Source: a virus (lineage: Duplodnaviria > Heunggongvirae > Uroviricota > Caudoviricetes). Taken from it: a stretch of DNA of 64,000 nucleotides. Below, piece after piece: positions 20,523 through 44,618 of this stretch (its first letter is position 1; every line of letters begins with the position of its first letter). The notes under the pieces were generated by a model. It was given only the letters and a program-made list of their open reading frames with translations, did no database searches and was not told where the DNA came from. The translations under genes were made by a program, and so were the position numbers. The stretch is taken from positions 12,132 through 76,131 of the IMG/VR virus record IMGVR_UViG_2778261223_000007; one strand, given 5' to 3'.

Positions 20523-20539
20523 GTTAAATTTCTAACATA
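20523..20539 (+). promoter_or_regulatory. operator-like motif GTTAAATTTCTAACATA
   Basis: Member of the dispersed TTTCTAACA motif family; upstream of RepL-like gene. Confidence 0.5.
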
Positions 20540-29800: not shown

Positions 29801-30721
29801 TTCCGCAAACCGTCCGGAGAAGGTCTGGAATCATTCTGGAGGACCGTGCTGGCATACCGTTTATTCCAGGGCAGGATGAAAGCCTTTAGCAATATCGATG
29901 ATATTGAACGGATGTTTAATCAGGTCAAGATCGCGAAAATTAAGGCGAAGATCGAAAAAACACGTTCTGCGCTGGTGGCCTGGCGCGATGCATTGTTTGA
30001 GCAATATAAATCACTCAGTGATGCAGATGGATGGGCGGCATTGGAACAGCTGGCGAATAATGGGGTAGATGGAGCGAAACTCGCCATTGTTCAGGCTGAT
30101 AACCCCCTGGAATCACCGGCAGCACAGTGGATTAAGGTGGGGGCTGTCATCAATGCATTTGATGAAAAACACATTAGTAAGGACGATTTTGCTGATGCTG
30201 TTTCTGTTAATCGCCTGGTAGAAATGGCTACCCGCCGCGCCCGTGAGTTGAAAGACGGCGACTATGTGAATGAGTTGCCGGATACGCTCAAATCGGCAAC
30301 GTGGCAGGACTATGTATCGCTGAAAAACGGCGGGGCCACTGAATCAGAGATCGCGGAAAGGCTTGAGCAGGCTGAAAGCAAAAGAGAAGAGCAGGCGGCA
30401 GTGGCTGAAGCCAGAGCTGATGAAGCGGCGAATGATGACTATATCATTGTGGTTAATGATAAGCCGATTCGCGCTAAGGCGCGTGTTCGCGGGCGCTGGT
30501 GGAGCGTCAGCGAGGACGTTGGCGCGGTTTATCTCATTGCCGACCAACCAGGTTCCTCGACAATACGGAACGCCAAAGACGCGATTAAGAAGATTGGCGG
30601 GCGTTTCTGGAATTTTGAAGCAAACCCGGTTGCTGATGTGAACTTTGACCGTCCTGCATGGATGGTATCTACGCGTTACTCGGTAGATGAACTGCGTAAA
30701 ATAATCGCCGATGCGGCCTAA
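23885..30721 (+). CDS. darB: DarB-like antirestriction protein: N6-adenine methyltransferase-like N-terminal domain plus SF2 helicase-like domain
   Basis: 2278 aa, TTG start with GAGGGGG RBS; MTase-like NVPFGEG motif; helicase Walker A GFGTGLGKTT, DEGHNYRN box, motif VI QRNGRGARVG; size matches P1 DarB. Confidence 0.8.
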   Translation: MDKLLHSISEASSLGELIEIVSRLHKLRAVATFGVRKADGVSIQKTRRAANNAAVNLLNSLPPGFDGAKLTDEQRQILAGYTGEGGLTDGEGSQYEYYTPQFMAEGIWDLFADYGIDGGHVLEPSAGTGIFQETKRQGMIMTSAELSPISGRINQLLHPEDDVNIGAFEALAAKDAMYDHAVGNVPFGEGRSGVAGLDPAYANEKNVGNYFVLRTIDKVKPGGLIVLVVPNGMTDGTKYKKLRDKVSRKAEFLGAHRMPSGTFSESGTDTVVDVWVLRKHPETFLEMIPDTDDSTLKSANVLWDTFLKGKWFTTEGKRFVYGDMERASFRNTLVVKKDGRVSNESMKTALSRRFDSRINWDLLGVTTQAWQGAKVGDKRLVGGIWHEFDGLKWVKDTTTKSSALDVSRYGVSTFGDLQIAFQSTNGILALSWDQISAIASDYPSVVSDEVAAMIRFAGKQREKDRERVMRGALIGQLINKALDLRNLGVNVDDKLADASRLAAAEVAKYGPPHAIKLNGLAEAGAKNWMTFTGNVKQDGSTSDLLAGRLDVTDGAAGIDFTRPEQVIAHLFSDVALNPITLGDFREAFAGELPEDDDAALEYLAKFDDIAIDGYGCLLPMDRATSGDVATKTALLVGWRDASTGEQKANFERQLAKIEEKRIFTPLNKVTVNLNARWLDRRLIKEFLAEQGYDEFKYTEPDLKVVDGILVSPDDYEGKDGVFTGYQLRTVNGKNGNEFKKANNKDGFLNQLENYLNGVKPRGQNANEYLDKIAQLEVSFNDWLRTHPQADQIARDYNDAFNGFIPFTHSDAPLGLEGISGKRIPLTYQNEEVRRLSEDGRGIMGFGTGLGKTTTALALEAYNFETGRTKRTCIVVPKAVYQNWYHEAQSFYSADAFANMMFIGLDEVRDDSGNILTAPVLDENGEPRLDSNGQPLTRNVVKESSSAVIVQRMNMIPSSNWRTVIMTKEQFASIPLREKTIEENSQQAVFNAVEMGRLDLASGKHRDAQKKNKIKDQAANTGTTKKQNIPYFEDMNFDSVIADEGHNYRNSFNAGREAGQLAYLPNPAVSKMARDMAVKAAYMMKRNNGRGVVMLTATPLVNSPIDAFNMLSTVIPQEEWMRMGIITPDDFVRVFGKTATVQVQKISGEVEEKQGLVGFQNLDGLRGIFHRWATLKTAADVGATVKIPDIIENTLQIPMTGEQETAYEELRKRAQELSRNDELTVDENGHITNDKPDDFIFSIIRDMDKVAIDPDLYASAITFQFPVELADQVKAIADALPKVAGGKVADDVDEAEEDGAGGLVSTRTSKVVKTAFSEHPTHVEIRASIELEAEILKAIAAAGIDMQQVSHPIPPKYAALIENLREGLKNGKQIVFIDEKAQHQKLRRIIASALQMPEQEIGIINATTVSQAGGIKLKKVNKPTEPTPNKNGEYKEGAWETYYSKLAQYEDYLSAKNDAGLEGMEGIAADYNEGRTRIIICNKKAEVGINLHIGTTDIHHLTLPWTPASIDQRNGRGARVGSPQEKVNVHYYCGKGTFDDFRLDTLKRKKDWIKMVMTSDMSEIANGDADDADERAIMLAANPEERRAIMARQAQEREERLKLKAQREANNALDIYLKAANAAGKDIGMMETELKSAMEQIEYYQRNLDDLIKAGTNRNGQKYALEQLSSYRKRARVLRFAITRAKDADTIMKRSRGDVERAIKSGVLDISIDVIQNPQEYMRTDKNILLHKGSYYRAVIDDRETTAIVRVEKIDGEKAQYLCRIAWLDRASRYARAPGSIVTLPFDSVIEAVTFEEGVAESRATAARGVQCHQLSTILTRDQFYDAIRNGVMNVIAGKPGNAWGGGSAIKYWAYRTDDGQIALSSAYDGVIGQKIGRASDIAPERWIYPDGNDEALKREVAKIQASDNPLNIVDGEGFLQALYGYDYIQGMQAWGAQATMDDVAQEFENWMAGRGLSGRSLNKVTSEDILSLFRKPSGEGLESFWRTVLAYRLFQGRMKAFSNIDDIERMFNQVKIAKIKAKIEKTRSALVAWRDALFEQYKSLSDADGWAALEQLANNGVDGAKLAIVQADNPLESPAAQWIKVGAVINAFDEKHISKDDFADAVSVNRLVEMATRRARELKDGDYVNELPDTLKSATWQDYVSLKNGGATESEIAERLEQAESKREEQAAVAEARADEAANDDYIIVVNDKPIRAKARVRGRWWSVSEDVGAVYLIADQPGSSTIRNAKDAIKKIGGRFWNFEANPVADVNFDRPAWMVSTRYSVDELRKIIADAA

Positions 30722-38843: not shown

Positions 38844-40204
38844 GTCTGGTTAATTGGGAGGAGCACCGCGCCCGCTTTATGGCGTTGCGTGAAGAAAAAG
38901 GGATCACTGTAAAGGAATACTGTGAGGAGCATGGCCTTAGCTTCAATACAGCCAGAAAGCATCTCAATATGAAAAAAAATGAGGTGCGGTCGCAGGTAAA
39001 GACAACAAAAAAAAGCACCAAATCACCTGAAAAAAAACGGGCGGGAAGAGCAACAAAAAAGCTGGAAGAGGGTGCAGAAAAAACAAAATTTACAGAAATT
39101 GACAATTCGCAGGGCGCAGGTTCTTTCCGAAGTATGCCGAGAAAGAAAACTTCGGATCATGAAAATAATTCAAATAATAACAATGAGATAAAAGAATCCG
39201 TCAGGAGATCATTGCGCGAAAAAATGGCGAAAATGATCCCCGAAGAAGATAAAAGCGCCCCAAAAATTGAGGGATCTTCTGCAATGATCCCTGACGGTGC
39301 TGTGCAGCGTGCCACATTGCCAACTACGAATGTGGCTCGCGATATGATGAAGAACGGCGCAGAAGAACACCTGCGGTTAGCAATTCAAATGGCGCAAGAG
39401 CGCGCACTTCAGTATCAAAGCATTGTTGATCAGGAGGCCGAACGTCTACAGGCGGAAATAGACGCCTTGGGCGATAAAGAGCCAGAAGGAATGCACCCTG
39501 GGCAGCGCCTTCTCGGTCTAATCAGTGACGCGGCCTACTACATGAATGATTTTATCAGTAGGTTGGCAGCTATATATCAGTCCGAACAAAAGCTGCGACA
39601 GGGGGATGAAAAGCTTCGTCAGAGCGCTCGCCAGCAAGCATTCAAAGAGGCTGAGGCCAGAGAAAAACTCGAATTAGCACGCCTACAGGCCGAACAGCGT
39701 GGCAAAGAGATTGAATATCGCATTGGCGCTGACGCACGCGCAGCCAGAGTTATCGCCGCCGCTATACGTATGCGTGAGCGCGAGGAACTGGATGATATCG
39801 GTGTTGCTGAATACATCGAGCGCCAGGGTGTCAGCGTCCCGGCTATCCTCGCGGCGCGCGCGGCGAAAGCTATCACTCTTCTCGAACCACCTGTTTCTGA
39901 CGTCAATGATGTTGATGATGAACAGCTGGACAAAGAGGCAAGGGAGTTTGCAACGCTTCAGGCTAACCATCCGCAATGGCTGGCAGAGCGCCGGGCGGAT
40001 GTGGCAACCATTGTTGAAGAATTGGGGTGCGGAGATTACGACCGCAATGGCGAGCGTAAAGCAGGAGAATTCGAGGCCAACGACGAAGAGCTGGATATTG
40101 ACCCTTCGGCAACGGCTGAAATTTACGGTGATTATGATGCATCTGATGCAGGGTATGACGCCGGAGATGATGATATCGCGATAGAACCGCCGGAGGATGA
40201 TTAA
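38840..40204 (+). CDS. pacA: terminase small subunit / pac-recognition protein (PacA-like)
   Basis: 454 aa; N-terminal HTH-like segment, highly acidic C-terminus; immediately upstream of and coupled to the large terminase gene. Confidence 0.55.
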   Translation: MSLVNWEEHRARFMALREEKGITVKEYCEEHGLSFNTARKHLNMKKNEVRSQVKTTKKSTKSPEKKRAGRATKKLEEGAEKTKFTEIDNSQGAGSFRSMPRKKTSDHENNSNNNNEIKESVRRSLREKMAKMIPEEDKSAPKIEGSSAMIPDGAVQRATLPTTNVARDMMKNGAEEHLRLAIQMAQERALQYQSIVDQEAERLQAEIDALGDKEPEGMHPGQRLLGLISDAAYYMNDFISRLAAIYQSEQKLRQGDEKLRQSARQQAFKEAEAREKLELARLQAEQRGKEIEYRIGADARAARVIAAAIRMREREELDDIGVAEYIERQGVSVPAILAARAAKAITLLEPPVSDVNDVDDEQLDKEAREFATLQANHPQWLAERRADVATIVEELGCGDYDRNGERKAGEFEANDEELDIDPSATAEIYGDYDASDAGYDAGDDDIAIEPPEDD

Positions 40205-41712
40205 TGGCTGGAGGGCGCAAGATTAAATGCGTCACCAGCGATCCACGCTGGCGCGATATGGTAATCAAATACCGCTACAACTTTACCCAAGCTGTTGTCG
40301 ATATTTTTGGGATGTTCCCCTCCCACCAGCAGCAGCAGATCATTCAGTCCGTGCAGGAAACGGGGAGTAGGACGACCGTCACGTCCGGACACGGAACGGG
40401 GAAGTCGTCCCTTACCGCGATGTTGCTGTTGATTTTCATGATCCTGTTCCCCGATGCCCGTGTCATCATTGTTGCTAACAAGATAGGCCAGGTAAAAACA
40501 GGCGTATTCAAATACGTTAAACAGTATTGGGCGAATGCAGTTAAGCGTCATGGGTGGTTGCAGACCTATTTTGTCCTCTCTGACACCATGTTTTATGAGC
40601 GCTCCCGTAAGGGGATTTGGGAAGTTCTCTGCAAAGGTTATCGACTCGGCAACGAAGAAGCGCTGGCGGGGGAACACGCGGCACATTTGCTTCTAATTCT
40701 GGATGAAGCATCTGGTATATCTGATAAGGCGATCGGCGTAATGACCGGTGCTCTTACTGAAGAAGATAACCGGATGTTGATGCTATCCCAGCCAACAAGG
40801 CCAAGTGGTTATTTCTACGATTCGCACCATTCTCAAGCAAAAACCCCAGACAACCCGAAAGGGATCTGGACAGCAATTGTTCTTAACTCGGAAGAATCAC
40901 CGTTCGTCACACCACAATTCATCAAGCAGAAGCTTCTGGAATATGGCGGGCGCGATTCTATTGAGTACATGGTCAAGGTGCTTGGTCAGTTCCCACGAGA
41001 AATTAACGGCTATTTGCTTGGTCGTGATGAATGCGATCGCGCTGCTCGCCGCAAGGTGTTGTTGGAGAAAAACTGGGGATGGGTGGCAACGGCTGACGTT
41101 GGTAATGGGCGAGATAAGTCGGTCCTCAACATCTGCAAGGTATCAGGTCACAGGGATAAGCGGCGCGTTGTTAACTTTAAGGTAATGGAGATGCCTGGCA
41201 CTATGGACCCATTGGCCTTTGCTGACTTCATATATAACGAATGTACGCCGGAAAAATACCCGAATATAACAATCGCGGTTGATGCTGATGGTTTTGGTTC
41301 TGATACGTGTGCGCAGTTGGTGCGTCGTGGTGCGAACCCGGTACGTATTCGGTGGGGAAAACCCATGTTTGCGAACAAAGACAGGGAGCGATTTGTTAAT
41401 CAGCGTGCCTACGCAAATATTATGGCGCGTGATGCCATAAAGTCAGGGCGTATGCGGATAGACAGTGACCCTAAAACGGCAGAGCAAGCGTCAAAAATCC
41501 CCTTTTTACTGAATGAAGAAGGGAAAATGGCGATGATGCGCAAAGAGCACATGCGGCAAAAGCTAAACATCAAATCGCCTGACCGATGGGATACCTACTG
41601 CTTCACTATGCTGGTGGACTATGTGCCTGCTAATGAAGATATTGGTGCCGAAATGGCAACTTTCCGAGATCAGGTTCTGGCGGATATCGAAATGCCGGAT
41701 CTGGATATATAA
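40204..41712 (+). CDS. pacB: terminase large subunit (PacB-like)
   Basis: 502 aa; Walker A TSGHGTGKSS, Walker B-like LLLILDEASGI, nuclease-domain acidic residues; overlaps pacA stop. Confidence 0.75.
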   Translation: MAGGRKIKCVTSDPRWRDMVIKYRYNFTQAVVDIFGMFPSHQQQQIIQSVQETGSRTTVTSGHGTGKSSLTAMLLLIFMILFPDARVIIVANKIGQVKTGVFKYVKQYWANAVKRHGWLQTYFVLSDTMFYERSRKGIWEVLCKGYRLGNEEALAGEHAAHLLLILDEASGISDKAIGVMTGALTEEDNRMLMLSQPTRPSGYFYDSHHSQAKTPDNPKGIWTAIVLNSEESPFVTPQFIKQKLLEYGGRDSIEYMVKVLGQFPREINGYLLGRDECDRAARRKVLLEKNWGWVATADVGNGRDKSVLNICKVSGHRDKRRVVNFKVMEMPGTMDPLAFADFIYNECTPEKYPNITIAVDADGFGSDTCAQLVRRGANPVRIRWGKPMFANKDRERFVNQRAYANIMARDAIKSGRMRIDSDPKTAEQASKIPFLLNEEGKMAMMRKEHMRQKLNIKSPDRWDTYCFTMLVDYVPANEDIGAEMATFRDQVLADIEMPDLDI

Positions 41713-41739: not shown

Positions 41740-42777
41740 TTACCAGAGCTTCGCGGCGTACTGCGTTTGGGGGAATGTGTATCCGTAACGTTCTTCGATT
41801 GCTTTGCCGTATTTTTTACGAGCTTCATTCAGTTTAATGCCGGTCAGGTCGTCTCCAGAGGCCATCATTACGTCTAACAATTCCAGATCCATTTTATCCA
41901 GCCTTGCCATTGCTTCACGTGATGTACGTATCTTACGCTCAATGATATGGCGAATAGCCGGATCGGCATCCTCCAGCATCTTAGCGGATTTCTGCTTAAG
42001 GCTTTCATTGCGAATATCGATGTTCCTTAAGATGTACGACTTCGCAACGTAGCTTGGCTGGTGTTTTTCCAGGTCACGAACACGATATAAGTTAAAATCG
42101 CCGAGAAGGCTGCAAGGTACCGATTCGACGCCAGAATAAATTGTAATGCTCCGGCGTTCACCAACATTATTGACAACGGGGATCGTTGTCTTCGGTTGTC
42201 TTGCGAAAACCAATGCGCCATGTGCGCCAACTCTAAAGCGAGAAAGGGCATTGCTGCCTTCGATGTTTGTTGTCAGCACAACATCTGTATATGCCTCTTT
42301 ACGCGCCCGGTAGATCTCGCCTTCAGGCTCAGCTTCAAAGAAGCGCTGTTCTTCTTCAAGAGCACCTACGATTTGAGAAAAAACCCTATTTTTCAGGCTT
42401 TTCTTTATGATTTTGTCGTATTTTTTTAGCAATTGTTCACGTGTAAATGTACGTGTTGTTGTAGCGCTTTGCACAACGACATGCGTGCTTTGATTGGTGT
42501 CCTCAATGATGAATGGGATCGGAGAATATACAGACTCAACAATGTTCGACGCTTTGCCGTCGGCATCGCGGCACATGTCAACGAAGGCTTTCCATTCAGC
42601 AAGACATTTTTCAGCTTCTTCTAATATGTTTTGGTCATGCGTTAATGCAACATGGCGGAATTCCTCGCCAGCATAACTGGTATCATGGAAAACAGAGTTT
42701 GCGACCACCAGCTCTTTCCACCGTTCAGCGGTTTGCAGGAACCGTTTGTACTCTTTCTCGATCGACTTCTTACTCAT
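41740..42777 (-). CDS. hypothetical protein at the immC-equivalent position (candidate repressor or immunity function)
   Basis: 345 aa, convergent with pacB; operator-like motif 42790..42807 overlaps its start region; no recognisable similarity to P1 C1 by eye. Confidence 0.5.
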   Translation of the reverse strand: MSKKSIEKEYKRFLQTAERWKELVVANSVFHDTSYAGEEFRHVALTHDQNILEEAEKCLAEWKAFVDMCRDADGKASNIVESVYSPIPFIIEDTNQSTHVVVQSATTTRTFTREQLLKKYDKIIKKSLKNRVFSQIVGALEEEQRFFEAEPEGEIYRARKEAYTDVVLTTNIEGSNALSRFRVGAHGALVFARQPKTTIPVVNNVGERRSITIYSGVESVPCSLLGDFNLYRVRDLEKHQPSYVAKSYILRNIDIRNESLKQKSAKMLEDADPAIRHIIERKIRTSREAMARLDKMDLELLDVMMASGDDLTGIKLNEARKKYGKAIEERYGYTFPQTQYAAKLW

Positions 42778-42789
42778 TATTCCTACTCG

Positions 42790-42807
42790 ATTTAGTTTTC
42801 TAACATA
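42790..42807 (+). promoter_or_regulatory. operator-like motif ATTTAGTTTTCTAACATA
   Basis: Motif family member; overlaps the start region of the minus-strand gene 41740..42777. Confidence 0.5.
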
Positions 42808-42987
42808 AAATTACTATGACAAATTTATGTCGAATAACAGAGTGAGTAAAGGATCGAACTGTGATTTTTTGTCATCAATTTTAGAAAACCAACCGTAGAA
42901 ACCACACTTCGCTAATTAAAGACCATGAAGGCAACGTGTTACTGGTCATCATCAATCTATGATGGATTAAAAAAAATCGGCATTTTA

Positions 42988-43019
42988 TAACTTTAAATAA
43001 TTGGCATTATTTAAAGTTA
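42988..43019. other. rox-type recombination site (32 bp: 14-bp inverted arms, 4-bp spacer TGGC)
   Basis: TAACTTTAAATAAT-TGGC-ATTATTTAAAGTTA is the reverse complement of the rox site as I recall it; 14/14 arm complementarity; 150 bp upstream of the Cre-family gene. Confidence 0.8.
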
Positions 43020-43028
43020 GGCTATAAT
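43001..43028 (+). promoter_or_regulatory. sigma70-like promoter overlapping rox (-35 TTGGCA, 16-bp spacer, -10 TATAAT)
   Basis: Seen directly; oriented toward the recombinase gene. Confidence 0.4.
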
Positions 43029-43171
43029 CATGTGTAGATGAACAGTATTGACATCACTGAAAATACGTGCATCCAATCAAAGGCTTGTATTTTGAAAATT
43101 AACTTATAGCTACCCTGTCATTTTTATATTTTTCGCGTAGCTTCATCTGTATATAGAGGTGAAATGGTTTC

Positions 43172-44200
43172 ATGAGTGAATTAATTATCTCTGGCAGTTC
43201 CGGTGGTTTTCTGCGCAACATTGGCAAAGAGTACCAGGAAGCCGCAGAAAACTTTATGCGGTTCATGAATGATCAGGGTGCTTATGCGCCGAATACTCTG
43301 CGCGACCTCCGGTTGGTGTTTCATTCCTGGGCGCGCTGGTGTCACGCTCGCCAGCTTGCCTGGTTTCCGATCTCACCAGAAATGGCCCGCGAGTATTTTC
43401 TTCAGTTGCATGATGCCGATCTGGCTTCGACCACCATTGATAAGCACTACGCCATGCTTAACATGCTGCTTTCTCATTGTGGCCTTCCGCCACTTTCGGA
43501 TGATAAAAGTGTTTCTCTGGCTATGCGGCGTATCCGGCGCGAAGCGGCAACGGAAAAAGGCGAACGAACAGGCCAGGCTATACCGCTGCGATGGGACGAC
43601 CTGAAACTGCTCGACGTCCTGTTGTCCAGGTCAGAACGGCTGGTGGACCTGCGCAACCGGGCTTTTCTCTTTGTTGCATACAATACGCTGATGCGTATGT
43701 CGGAAATCTCGCGTATTCGTGTAGGAGATCTGGACCAAACAGGTGACACTGTCACGCTACATATTTCACACACGAAGACAATAACGACCGCCGCCGGGCT
43801 TGATAAGGTGCTTTCCCGTCGCACTACTGCTGTGCTGAATGACTGGCTGGATGTTTCCGGGCTTCGTGAACATCCTGACGCGGTGCTGTTCCCGCCGATA
43901 CACCGTAGCAATAAGGCCAGGATTACGACAACGCCCCTTACTGCACCTGCAATGGAGAAAATATTCAGCGACGCCTGGGTGTTGCTGAATAAAAGGGATG
44001 CCACGCCAAACAAAGGGAGATACCGGACGTGGACCGGGCATAGTGCTCGTGTCGGGGCCGCTATCGATATGGCTGAAAAGCAGGTGTCTATGGTGGAGAT
44101 TATGCAGGAAGGAACCTGGAAGAAACCGGAAACACTTATGCGGTATCTGCGCCGTGGCGGTGTGTCTGTGGGGGCTAATAGCCGCTTGATGGATTCATAA
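43172..44200 (+). CDS. dre: Cre-family tyrosine recombinase (Dre-like)
   Basis: 342 aa; blocks SWARWCHARQLAWFP, AMLNMLLSHCGLPPLSDDKSVSLAMRRIRRE, WTGHSARVGAAIDMA...MRYLR align with Cre (catalytic R, H-x-x-R, Y); cognate rox site upstream. Confidence 0.9.
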   Translation: MSELIISGSSGGFLRNIGKEYQEAAENFMRFMNDQGAYAPNTLRDLRLVFHSWARWCHARQLAWFPISPEMAREYFLQLHDADLASTTIDKHYAMLNMLLSHCGLPPLSDDKSVSLAMRRIRREAATEKGERTGQAIPLRWDDLKLLDVLLSRSERLVDLRNRAFLFVAYNTLMRMSEISRIRVGDLDQTGDTVTLHISHTKTITTAAGLDKVLSRRTTAVLNDWLDVSGLREHPDAVLFPPIHRSNKARITTTPLTAPAMEKIFSDAWVLLNKRDATPNKGRYRTWTGHSARVGAAIDMAEKQVSMVEIMQEGTWKKPETLMRYLRRGGVSVGANSRLMDS

Positions 44201-44218
44201 ATTAAATTTCTAACACAT
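44201..44218 (+). promoter_or_regulatory. operator-like motif ATTAAATTTCTAACACAT
   Basis: Motif family member; immediately after the recombinase stop. Confidence 0.5.
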
Positions 44219-44261
44219 CTTTTTAGATTGATATCTTTGCTGTAAAGTACCCTCGCCTATT

Positions 44262-44618
44262 TTGGAGGGTGCTTTGCAGAGTCAAATCACGGAATCAAGA
44301 CGCTTCACGGTGGATGGTTACACCGTAACCTTCGCCGCTGGTGTTAAGAACAGTCATGCTGTCGTTGTATTCGGCATCATGACCGGGCTTGAGGCCGTCC
44401 CTGTGTTTACCCTCGAAAAAAACTGGCGAAATCTGGAGGAAGCAGAAAGCTACGTCCGGAAAGTAACCATCATTGCCGCCGAAAAACTCCTGGCCCACTA
44501 TCAGGAAAATTATCGCACTATGGTCGAGAAGATTAATCTCGCTTTCACTCGCCCCACTACCGGCTTTATTGCACCGGATACTAATGCAGGTCGATATCCG
44601 GCAAGGGGGCGTCGGTGA
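44262..44618 (+). CDS. hypothetical protein (TTG start)
   Basis: 118 aa; operator-like motif 44201..44218 directly upstream. Confidence 0.35.
   Translation: MEGALQSQITESRRFTVDGYTVTFAAGVKNSHAVVVFGIMTGLEAVPVFTLEKNWRNLEEAESYVRKVTIIAAEKLLAHYQENYRTMVEKINLAFTRPTTGFIAPDTNAGRYPARGRR

Follow-up and report, generated by a model that had tools for sequence, protein, structure and literature searches.

Positions 42988 to 44200 of the window, by which we mean the whole 64-kb stretch of phage DNA analyzed here, are the Dre/rox module for site-specific recombination in its native setting, from phage-plasmid D6 or a stock 99.5 to 99.8% identical to the deposited genome. In the arrangement that we propose, dre would most likely be transcribed from a near-consensus sigma-70 promoter whose −35 hexamer is the rox crossover region and whose −10 hexamer lies beyond the right arm of the site. 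Taken whole, this explanation is very probably correct; nested within it are two inferences, namely that the promoter is active, which we consider likely, and that Dre represses it, which we consider possible at somewhat less than an even chance. Genome engineers working with mice, zebrafish, and bacteria routinely pair Dre/rox with Cre/lox. The system of Escherichia phage D6 was reportedly described by Sauer and McDermott in 2004, and D6 sequences are deposited in GenBank as AY753669 and MF356679. The module is already known and has been heavily used since 2004, and its recovery from the window is a correct identification and no discovery. The only addition to the public annotation is a hypothesis, that of a candidate promoter embedded in rox with possible self-repression by Dre.

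The recombinase gene, dre (43172 to 44200, + strand), encodes a Cre-like tyrosine recombinase of 342 amino acids (aa) whose translation is 100% identical (342 of 342 positions) to Dre AAV84949, from the D6 immC region deposited as AY753669. The tyrosine recombinase family PF00589 was detected in Pfam with 62.6 bits (cutoff, 27.1), and all six catalytic residues are present (R175, K202, H290, R293, W316, and Y325); the catalytic residues listed for Dre in the literature are R175, H290, R293, W316, and Y325, with K202 not in the list (PMC4777119). The alignment with P1 Cre is nearly full length, with 41% identity over 322 aa, and Cre chains in the PDB are matched end to end (E = 5e-69). Judged by its sequence, the window recombinase is a Cre homologue of distinct specificity, Cre itself being excluded by the 41% identity. 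The first-pass annotation of this DNA had described a Dre-like protein that aligns with Cre yet is clearly diverged from it; the divergence stands, and comparison with Dre, where an identity below that expected of orthologs had been named as the point of failure, returned Dre itself. Recombination of rox by Dre, the same protein and site as here, is documented in E. coli and in mammalian cells (PMC3082901, PMC4957104, and PMC4777119). In E. coli, Dre recombines rox without cross-reaction with loxP (PMC3082901), and plasmids carrying rox are recombined efficiently even in uninduced cells (PMC4957104).

The site itself is the 32-bp palindrome TAACTTTAAATAATTGGCATTATTTAAAGTTA at 42988 to 43019, which can be written TAACTTTAAATAAT-TGGC-ATTATTTAAAGTTA. 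It consists of a left arm (42988 to 43001), the asymmetric spacer TGGC (43002 to 43005), and a right arm (43006 to 43019), a 14-4-14 layout. This stretch is the exact reverse complement (32 of 32 positions) of wild-type rox, printed as 5'-TAACTTTAAATAATGCCAATTATTTAAAGTTA-3' (PMC4777119); the + strand of the window reads the reverse of conventional rox. The published native D6 string, '(A)TAACTTTAAATAAT TGGC ATTATTTAAAGTTA(G)' (PMC3082901), is identical to the window, including the flanking A and G, and is given in the same orientation, and the site is also identical to the misc_recomb feature 'rox' of AY753669. The initial reading of the palindrome as rox in reverse orientation, for which a mismatch to the published site had been named as decisive, is upheld with no mismatch. 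With up to 3 mismatches permitted, the 64-kb window still has no second match, 100 shuffles yielded none at all, and no Dre half-sites were found in the window besides the two 14-bp arms. Identification of the site as loxP was rejected, the P1 site being ATAACTTCGTATAGCATACATTATACGAAGTTAT and the window site rox. A run of 6 to 8 A residues lies 11 to 20 bp to the left of rox (42968 to 42977); it is kept in most lineages with an otherwise very divergent left flank, is absent from two relatives (L107 and L109), and might act as an UP-like element, bend the DNA, or be the remnant of a terminator.

The surrounding genes follow the P1-like layout of pac, c1, site, and recombinase. pacB, encoding the large terminase subunit (40204 to 41712, + strand), and c1, encoding the prophage repressor (41740 to 42777, − strand, divergent from dre), were placed from the list of open reading frames (ORFs) and the AY753669 annotation, c1 being annotated in MF356679 as well, and the 394-bp c1-dre intergenic region contains rox. 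Comparison of the neighboring ORFs with the annotation gave the order pacA-pacB / c1 / rox / dre / orf2-orf3-dut, equal to that of AY753669, in which c1, a 'region of crossover (rox) site for Dre recombinase', and dre are all annotated. The order of c1, site, and recombinase is retained in all viral relatives. The 345-aa C1 repressor (41740 to 42777, − strand) had no Pfam match, and its identity in relatives with this gene order runs from 35% to 99.7%.

A megablast search with positions 42700 to 44500 returned three phage records, all of them Escherichia phage D6 at 99.8% identity, and the window is 99.5 to 99.8% identical to the D6 genome; together with the equal gene order, these values bear out the earlier suggestion that the element is D6-like. 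Positions 30000 to 54000 align collinearly, at 99.5% identity, with MF356679, the complete D6 genome; the alignment breaks exactly at the linearization point of that circular record, in the middle of rox. Between 42700 and 44500, there are three differences from AY753669 in 1,801 bp, at 43069, 43071, and 43142, none of them in rox or dre, and MF356679 differs from the window at the same three positions. The three substitutions cluster in the 152-bp leader between rox and dre, with none in the 1,029-bp dre gene, and natural relatives share the window allele at two of the three positions.

It is rather unlikely that the element, rather than being D6 proper, is one of the many D6-like plasmid prophages of the Enterobacteriaceae with an identical dre/rox module. 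Such an origin would be consistent with the three leader positions at which the window differs from both D6 deposits, with an identity of 99.5%, below 100%, over 13 kb, and with how common D6-like plasmids are. D6-like modules were found in 144 PLSDB plasmids and in 124 of 5,426 complete E. coli genomes, the carrier being a plasmid of ~90 kb in nearly every case, and D6-like plasmids are also present in Salmonella and Shigella. However, the D6 records were the best matches in all three collections, at 99.8%, whereas the best plasmids reached no more than 99.5% (Salmonella) and 98.3% (E. coli). The identity of the feature is in any case unaffected by the distinction between D6 and a D6-like plasmid.

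Relatedness to the window, compared over 42388 to 43619, shifts abruptly across rox among the relatives L076 to L107. Three of them (L077, L081, and L090) have 83 to 84% identity in the 600 bp to the left of rox and 95 to 98% to the right, and two others (L088 and L094) have 100% identity to the left and 93 to 94% to the right. The rox left-arm variant TAACTTTAGATAAT mostly accompanies a c1 allele of 89% identity. The shifts in identity suggest that immunity modules may have been exchanged at or near rox between co-resident phage-plasmids.

The candidate promoter lies on the + strand at 43001 to 43028 and faces dre. Its −35-like hexamer, TTGGCA (43001 to 43006; 5 of 6 consensus positions), is the 4-bp spacer with one adjoining base from each arm, thereby coinciding with the crossover region, and is followed after 16 bp by the −10 hexamer TATAAT (43023 to 43028; 6 of 6), for a total of 11 of 12 matches to the sigma-70 consensus. 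A promoter overlapping the spacer and right arm and directed at the recombinase gene had been noted at first pass and is confirmed as a feature of the sequence. Neither D6 record (AY753669 or MF356679) annotates a promoter at rox. Across both strands of the 64 kb, the promoter scan returned no other sigma-70 site with at least 11 of 12 matches. In first-order Markov simulations, the mean was 0.85 such sites per window, and the chance of one in a prespecified 60-bp stretch of one strand was ~4e-4 under the same model. No other sigma-70 match of at least 9 of 12 was found on either strand of the c1-dre intergenic region, and the scan returned no leftward promoter of that quality reading through rox toward c1, as P2coi does in P1. 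Since TTGGCA is dictated by rox itself, the −35 hexamer is not independent evidence. Only the −10 hexamer counts as such, because the TTGGCA center also occurs in sites from Pantoea that have no −10 in register.

The −10 hexamer is invariant in the D6-like relatives. TATAAT was present in all 33 D6-like viral loci, which range from 70 to 100% Dre identity, while the 3-nucleotide (nt) linker between it and rox varies (GGC, AGC, GTA, TCA, or GGT) and the 12 nt downstream vary widely. A pattern scan of viral contigs found TATAAT at 28 of 28 full rox palindromes and no palindrome lacking the hexamer; these 28 were largely on contigs already in the relative set, and the loose scan otherwise yielded mostly single-arm chance matches. 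At 70% Dre identity, L107 keeps the same register with TTAGCA/16/TATAAT (10 of 12). A hexamer that is not part of rox and yet stays constant between variable flanks points to a working promoter, with the reservation that invariance of six bases is of limited statistical weight because the D6-like relatives are closely related. We predict from this pattern that TTGGCA/16/TATAAT is, on balance, probably an active promoter in vivo.

The −35 hexamer of the relatives is mostly TTGGCA, with TTAGCA in L107, TTGGAG in L103, and TGGGGA in L093, and the spacers of L093 and L103 weaken it while TATAAT is retained. These natural rox spacer variants read GGGG in L093, TGGA followed by G in L103, and TAGC in L107; because recombination partners are matched through the rox spacer (PMC4777119), sites with these spacers may fall into groups that do not recombine with one another.

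Alternatively, the promoter-like match might be a by-product of an A+T-rich palindrome beside A+T-rich DNA, with rox having no regulatory role and dre depending, as in P1, on read-through or on weaker promoters within the 150-bp leader. We consider this unlikely, although several observations are consistent with it. The recombination site itself determines the −35, and Pantoea sites without a matching −10 have the TGGC center too; a damaged −35 is tolerated in L093 and L103; the genuine cre promoters of P1 are weak consensus matches outside lox that a simple scan misses; and the D6 leader has conserved blocks of its own, one of which contains TTGACA (43049 to 43054). A by-product, however, fits poorly with a TATAAT that stays constant amid changing neighbors down to 70% Dre identity, with a match that is the only one of at least 11 of 12 in 64 kb, and with the lack of any other match of at least 9 of 12 upstream of dre. 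Direct inspection also showed that the TTGACA at 43049 has no acceptable −10 at 16 to 18 bp.

With transcription from the rox-embedded promoter, the start would fall 6 to 8 nt past the −10 hexamer, as placed from the promoter geometry, and the predicted dre leader would be ~137 nt long (43035 to 43171, + strand), with a good ribosome-binding site, GAGGTGA, at 43156 to 43162 ahead of dre, as would suit expression from this promoter. The conserved leader block AGTATTGACA (43046 to 43054) includes the perfect TTGACA, and two more blocks, ACTTATAGCTACCCTGTCATTTTT and TTTTTCGCGTAGC, lie within 43102 to 43142, the latter recognizable even at 55% protein identity. No matching −10 was found for the conserved blocks at 43046 to 43054 and 43102 to 43142. 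A conserved RNA structure in the dre leader was rejected, the consensus energy being only −6 kcal/mol and covariation negligible, and an Rfam search of the leader returned no match. The conserved blocks, including TTGACA, could belong to other regulatory elements.

More distant relatives were recovered in two groups. The larger comprises 74 relatives (L002 to L075) from Pantoea, Erwinia, Rahnella, and Mixta, located on chromosomal contigs and large plasmids, with 41 to 47% Dre identity. Most of them have a rox/lox-like palindrome 165 to 260 bp upstream of the recombinase gene, in some cases with a TGGC center. TATAAT is always found on the gene-facing strand of these palindromes, at the junction of left arm and spacer, and many of the sites are followed by GGATCC...GATCC with Dam methylation sites, recalling the Dam sites of the P1 cre regulatory region. 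We checked 59 distinct Pantoea-group sites in two registers, one with the −35 in the spacer and the −10 past the right arm (register A) and one with the left-arm TATAAT as the −10 and the −35 upstream (register B). Neither register was consistent across the 59 sites and upstream −35 scores were at chance, and a site-embedded promoter as a trait of the whole family was rejected. The TATAAT inside these sites is more simply read as part of the recombinase recognition sequence. Given that the P1 cre promoters are outside lox and that no overlap is conserved in the relatives of 41 to 47% identity, site-embedded control is not family-wide. The Pantoea-group loci constitute a large pool of Cre-like systems yet to be characterized.

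The second group is a phage-plasmid lineage (L109 and L110) with 55 to 56% Dre identity and a pox/lox-like site, TAACTTTATATAA-TGTCAG-TTATATAAAGTTA. A promoter match of 11 of 12, TTTACA/16/TATAAT, overlaps this site and faces the recombinase gene (2804 to 2831 in L109; the same in L110). Its register differs from that of D6, the −10 lying in the left arm. As predicted from these sequences, a recombinase-directed promoter at or beside the site recurs in phage-plasmid lineages, whose registers differ; placement of the −35 within the site is specific to the D6 lineage.

Cre/lox of P1 is established to circularize incoming DNA and to resolve plasmid dimers. By analogy, Dre/rox in D6 would circularize infecting, terminally redundant DNA and resolve dimers of the plasmid prophage for segregation at low copy number, a role that has been assumed for D6-like plasmids (PMC6799933). 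Each 14-bp arm of rox would be bound by one Dre monomer, two sites so occupied would synapse, and strands would be exchanged in the central region through Tyr325. In Cre-loxP structures, the recombinase clamps each arm plus the adjacent spacer bases. The rox site (42988 to 43019) overlaps the predicted core promoter of dre, with the −35 inside the site and the −10 starting 3 bp after it, and with a start near 43035, rox spans ~−47 to −16; RNA polymerase should then have no access to the −35 while a Dre dimer occupies rox. Negative autoregulation of this kind could produce a burst of Dre upon entry of naive DNA and then hold Dre steadily low in the lysogen. From the geometry alone, repression of dre by its own product through rox is an idea that we hold tentatively, and the cautious 'could' with which the first-pass annotation raised it is apt. 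No mention of promoter activity at rox or of autoregulation by Cre or Dre was found in the literature searched, the original D6 Dre and genome papers being outside its coverage.

Control by the phage repressor was considered as well. The P1 C1 operator consensus had no match in the 64-kb window, and a P1-type C1 operator at the D6 promoter was rejected on that ground. A dispersed 15-bp motif, TTAGTTTTCTAACAT, had 14 matches with up to 3 mismatches compared with 2.5 expected, a number that no shuffle reached. These sites are at 20524, 21727, 26132, 31629, 32672, 33921, 38359, 42792, 42878, 44202, 53424, 56812, 57466, and 61231; the c1 start codon has a copy 15 bp upstream of it, and the dre stop codon is followed by one after 2 bp. 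The motif is probably the D6 counterpart of the dispersed C1 operators of P1, and none of the three copies near the locus (42792, 42878, and 44202) overlaps the promoter at 43001 to 43028.

Less probable than either alternative above is a promoter that functions free of Dre control, with expression constitutive or set by another factor, as might be the case if rox occupancy in vivo were transient or low or if RNA polymerase outcompeted Dre. The candidate C1 operator motif does not overlap the promoter, so the obvious phage repressor is not placed there, a finding that would sit with such a reading, as would the lack of reports of Cre or Dre autoregulation in the literature searched. On the other hand, rox covers −47 to −16, Dre matches Cre chains over their full length and would be expected to share the Cre-type clamp on the arms and adjacent spacer, and recombination in E. 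coli is efficient in the uninduced state (PMC4957104), which implies effective binding of Dre at low protein levels. It is conceivable, though we would not favor it at present, that rox also serves as an operator, with bound Dre repressing a strong promoter whose −35 is the crossover region and recombinase synthesis thereby depending on site occupancy, and that the promoter directed at the recombinase gene has shifted its place with respect to the site more than once among phage-plasmids. It ends 15 bp upstream of the site in P1, has its −10 in the left arm in the lineage of 55% identity, and has its −35 in the spacer in D6, which on this view would suggest recurrent selection for such coupling.

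If the promoter is real and repressed by Dre, it would be, as far as we found, the first described case of Cre-type self-regulation and would explain how a phage-plasmid holds a potentially damaging recombinase at a low level. The rox site would then carry a ready-made −35 facing one direction, with a risk of unintended transcription in bacterial constructs. Even so, the gain for phage-plasmid biology would be modest, together with a practical note for users of rox in bacteria.

Compared with P1, the D6 module has a homologous recombinase (41% identity) with the same catalytic residues, a palindrome that precedes the recombinase gene and has the same orientation relative to it, and the same layout of c1, site, and recombinase, and the roles in circularization and dimer resolution are presumably shared. 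The sites differ in design, 13-8-13 in loxP and 14-4-14 in rox, and in their distance from the gene, 418 bp between lox and cre versus 152 bp between rox and dre, and the P1 genes cra, coi, and imc are absent from D6. None of the four cre promoters in the curated P1 annotation overlaps lox, in contrast to the D6 candidate, the −35 of which is part of rox; the P1 promoters are weak consensus matches that went undetected in the same simple scan. P4cre (94740 to 94769) ends 15 bp before lox, which starts at 94784, reads through it, and overlaps the C1 operator Oc1e, while D6 has no sign of C1 control at the candidate promoter. P3cre, P2cre, and P1cre are downstream of lox, and P2coi, a promoter of coi distinct from the cre promoters, reads leftward through it. 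Classification of the D6 promoter as a P4cre type was rejected, because it overlaps rox rather than lying wholly upstream, and neither the P1 operator consensus nor the candidate D6 operator motif falls on it.

Dre cross-reacts with the Panto/pox system of Pantoea sp. aB, whose recombinase is 52% identical to Dre (PMC4957104). Panto/pox and its relatives resemble Dre/rox in having Cre-like recombinases and a rox-like palindrome 165 to 260 bp upstream, several with TGGC centers. They differ from it in protein identity (41 to 56%), in arms that read ...TATAA compared with ...AATAA in rox, and in having no −10 past the right arm and no consistent promoter overlapping the site. Autoregulation of a recombinase gene through the recombinase's own site is known from the Tn3 and gamma-delta resolvases acting at res, for which repression has been demonstrated. 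Those enzymes are serine recombinases with a multi-subsite res, and for Dre, repression is deduced from geometry only; the proposed D6 arrangement would nevertheless share with them a recombinase binding site that overlaps the promoter of the recombinase gene.
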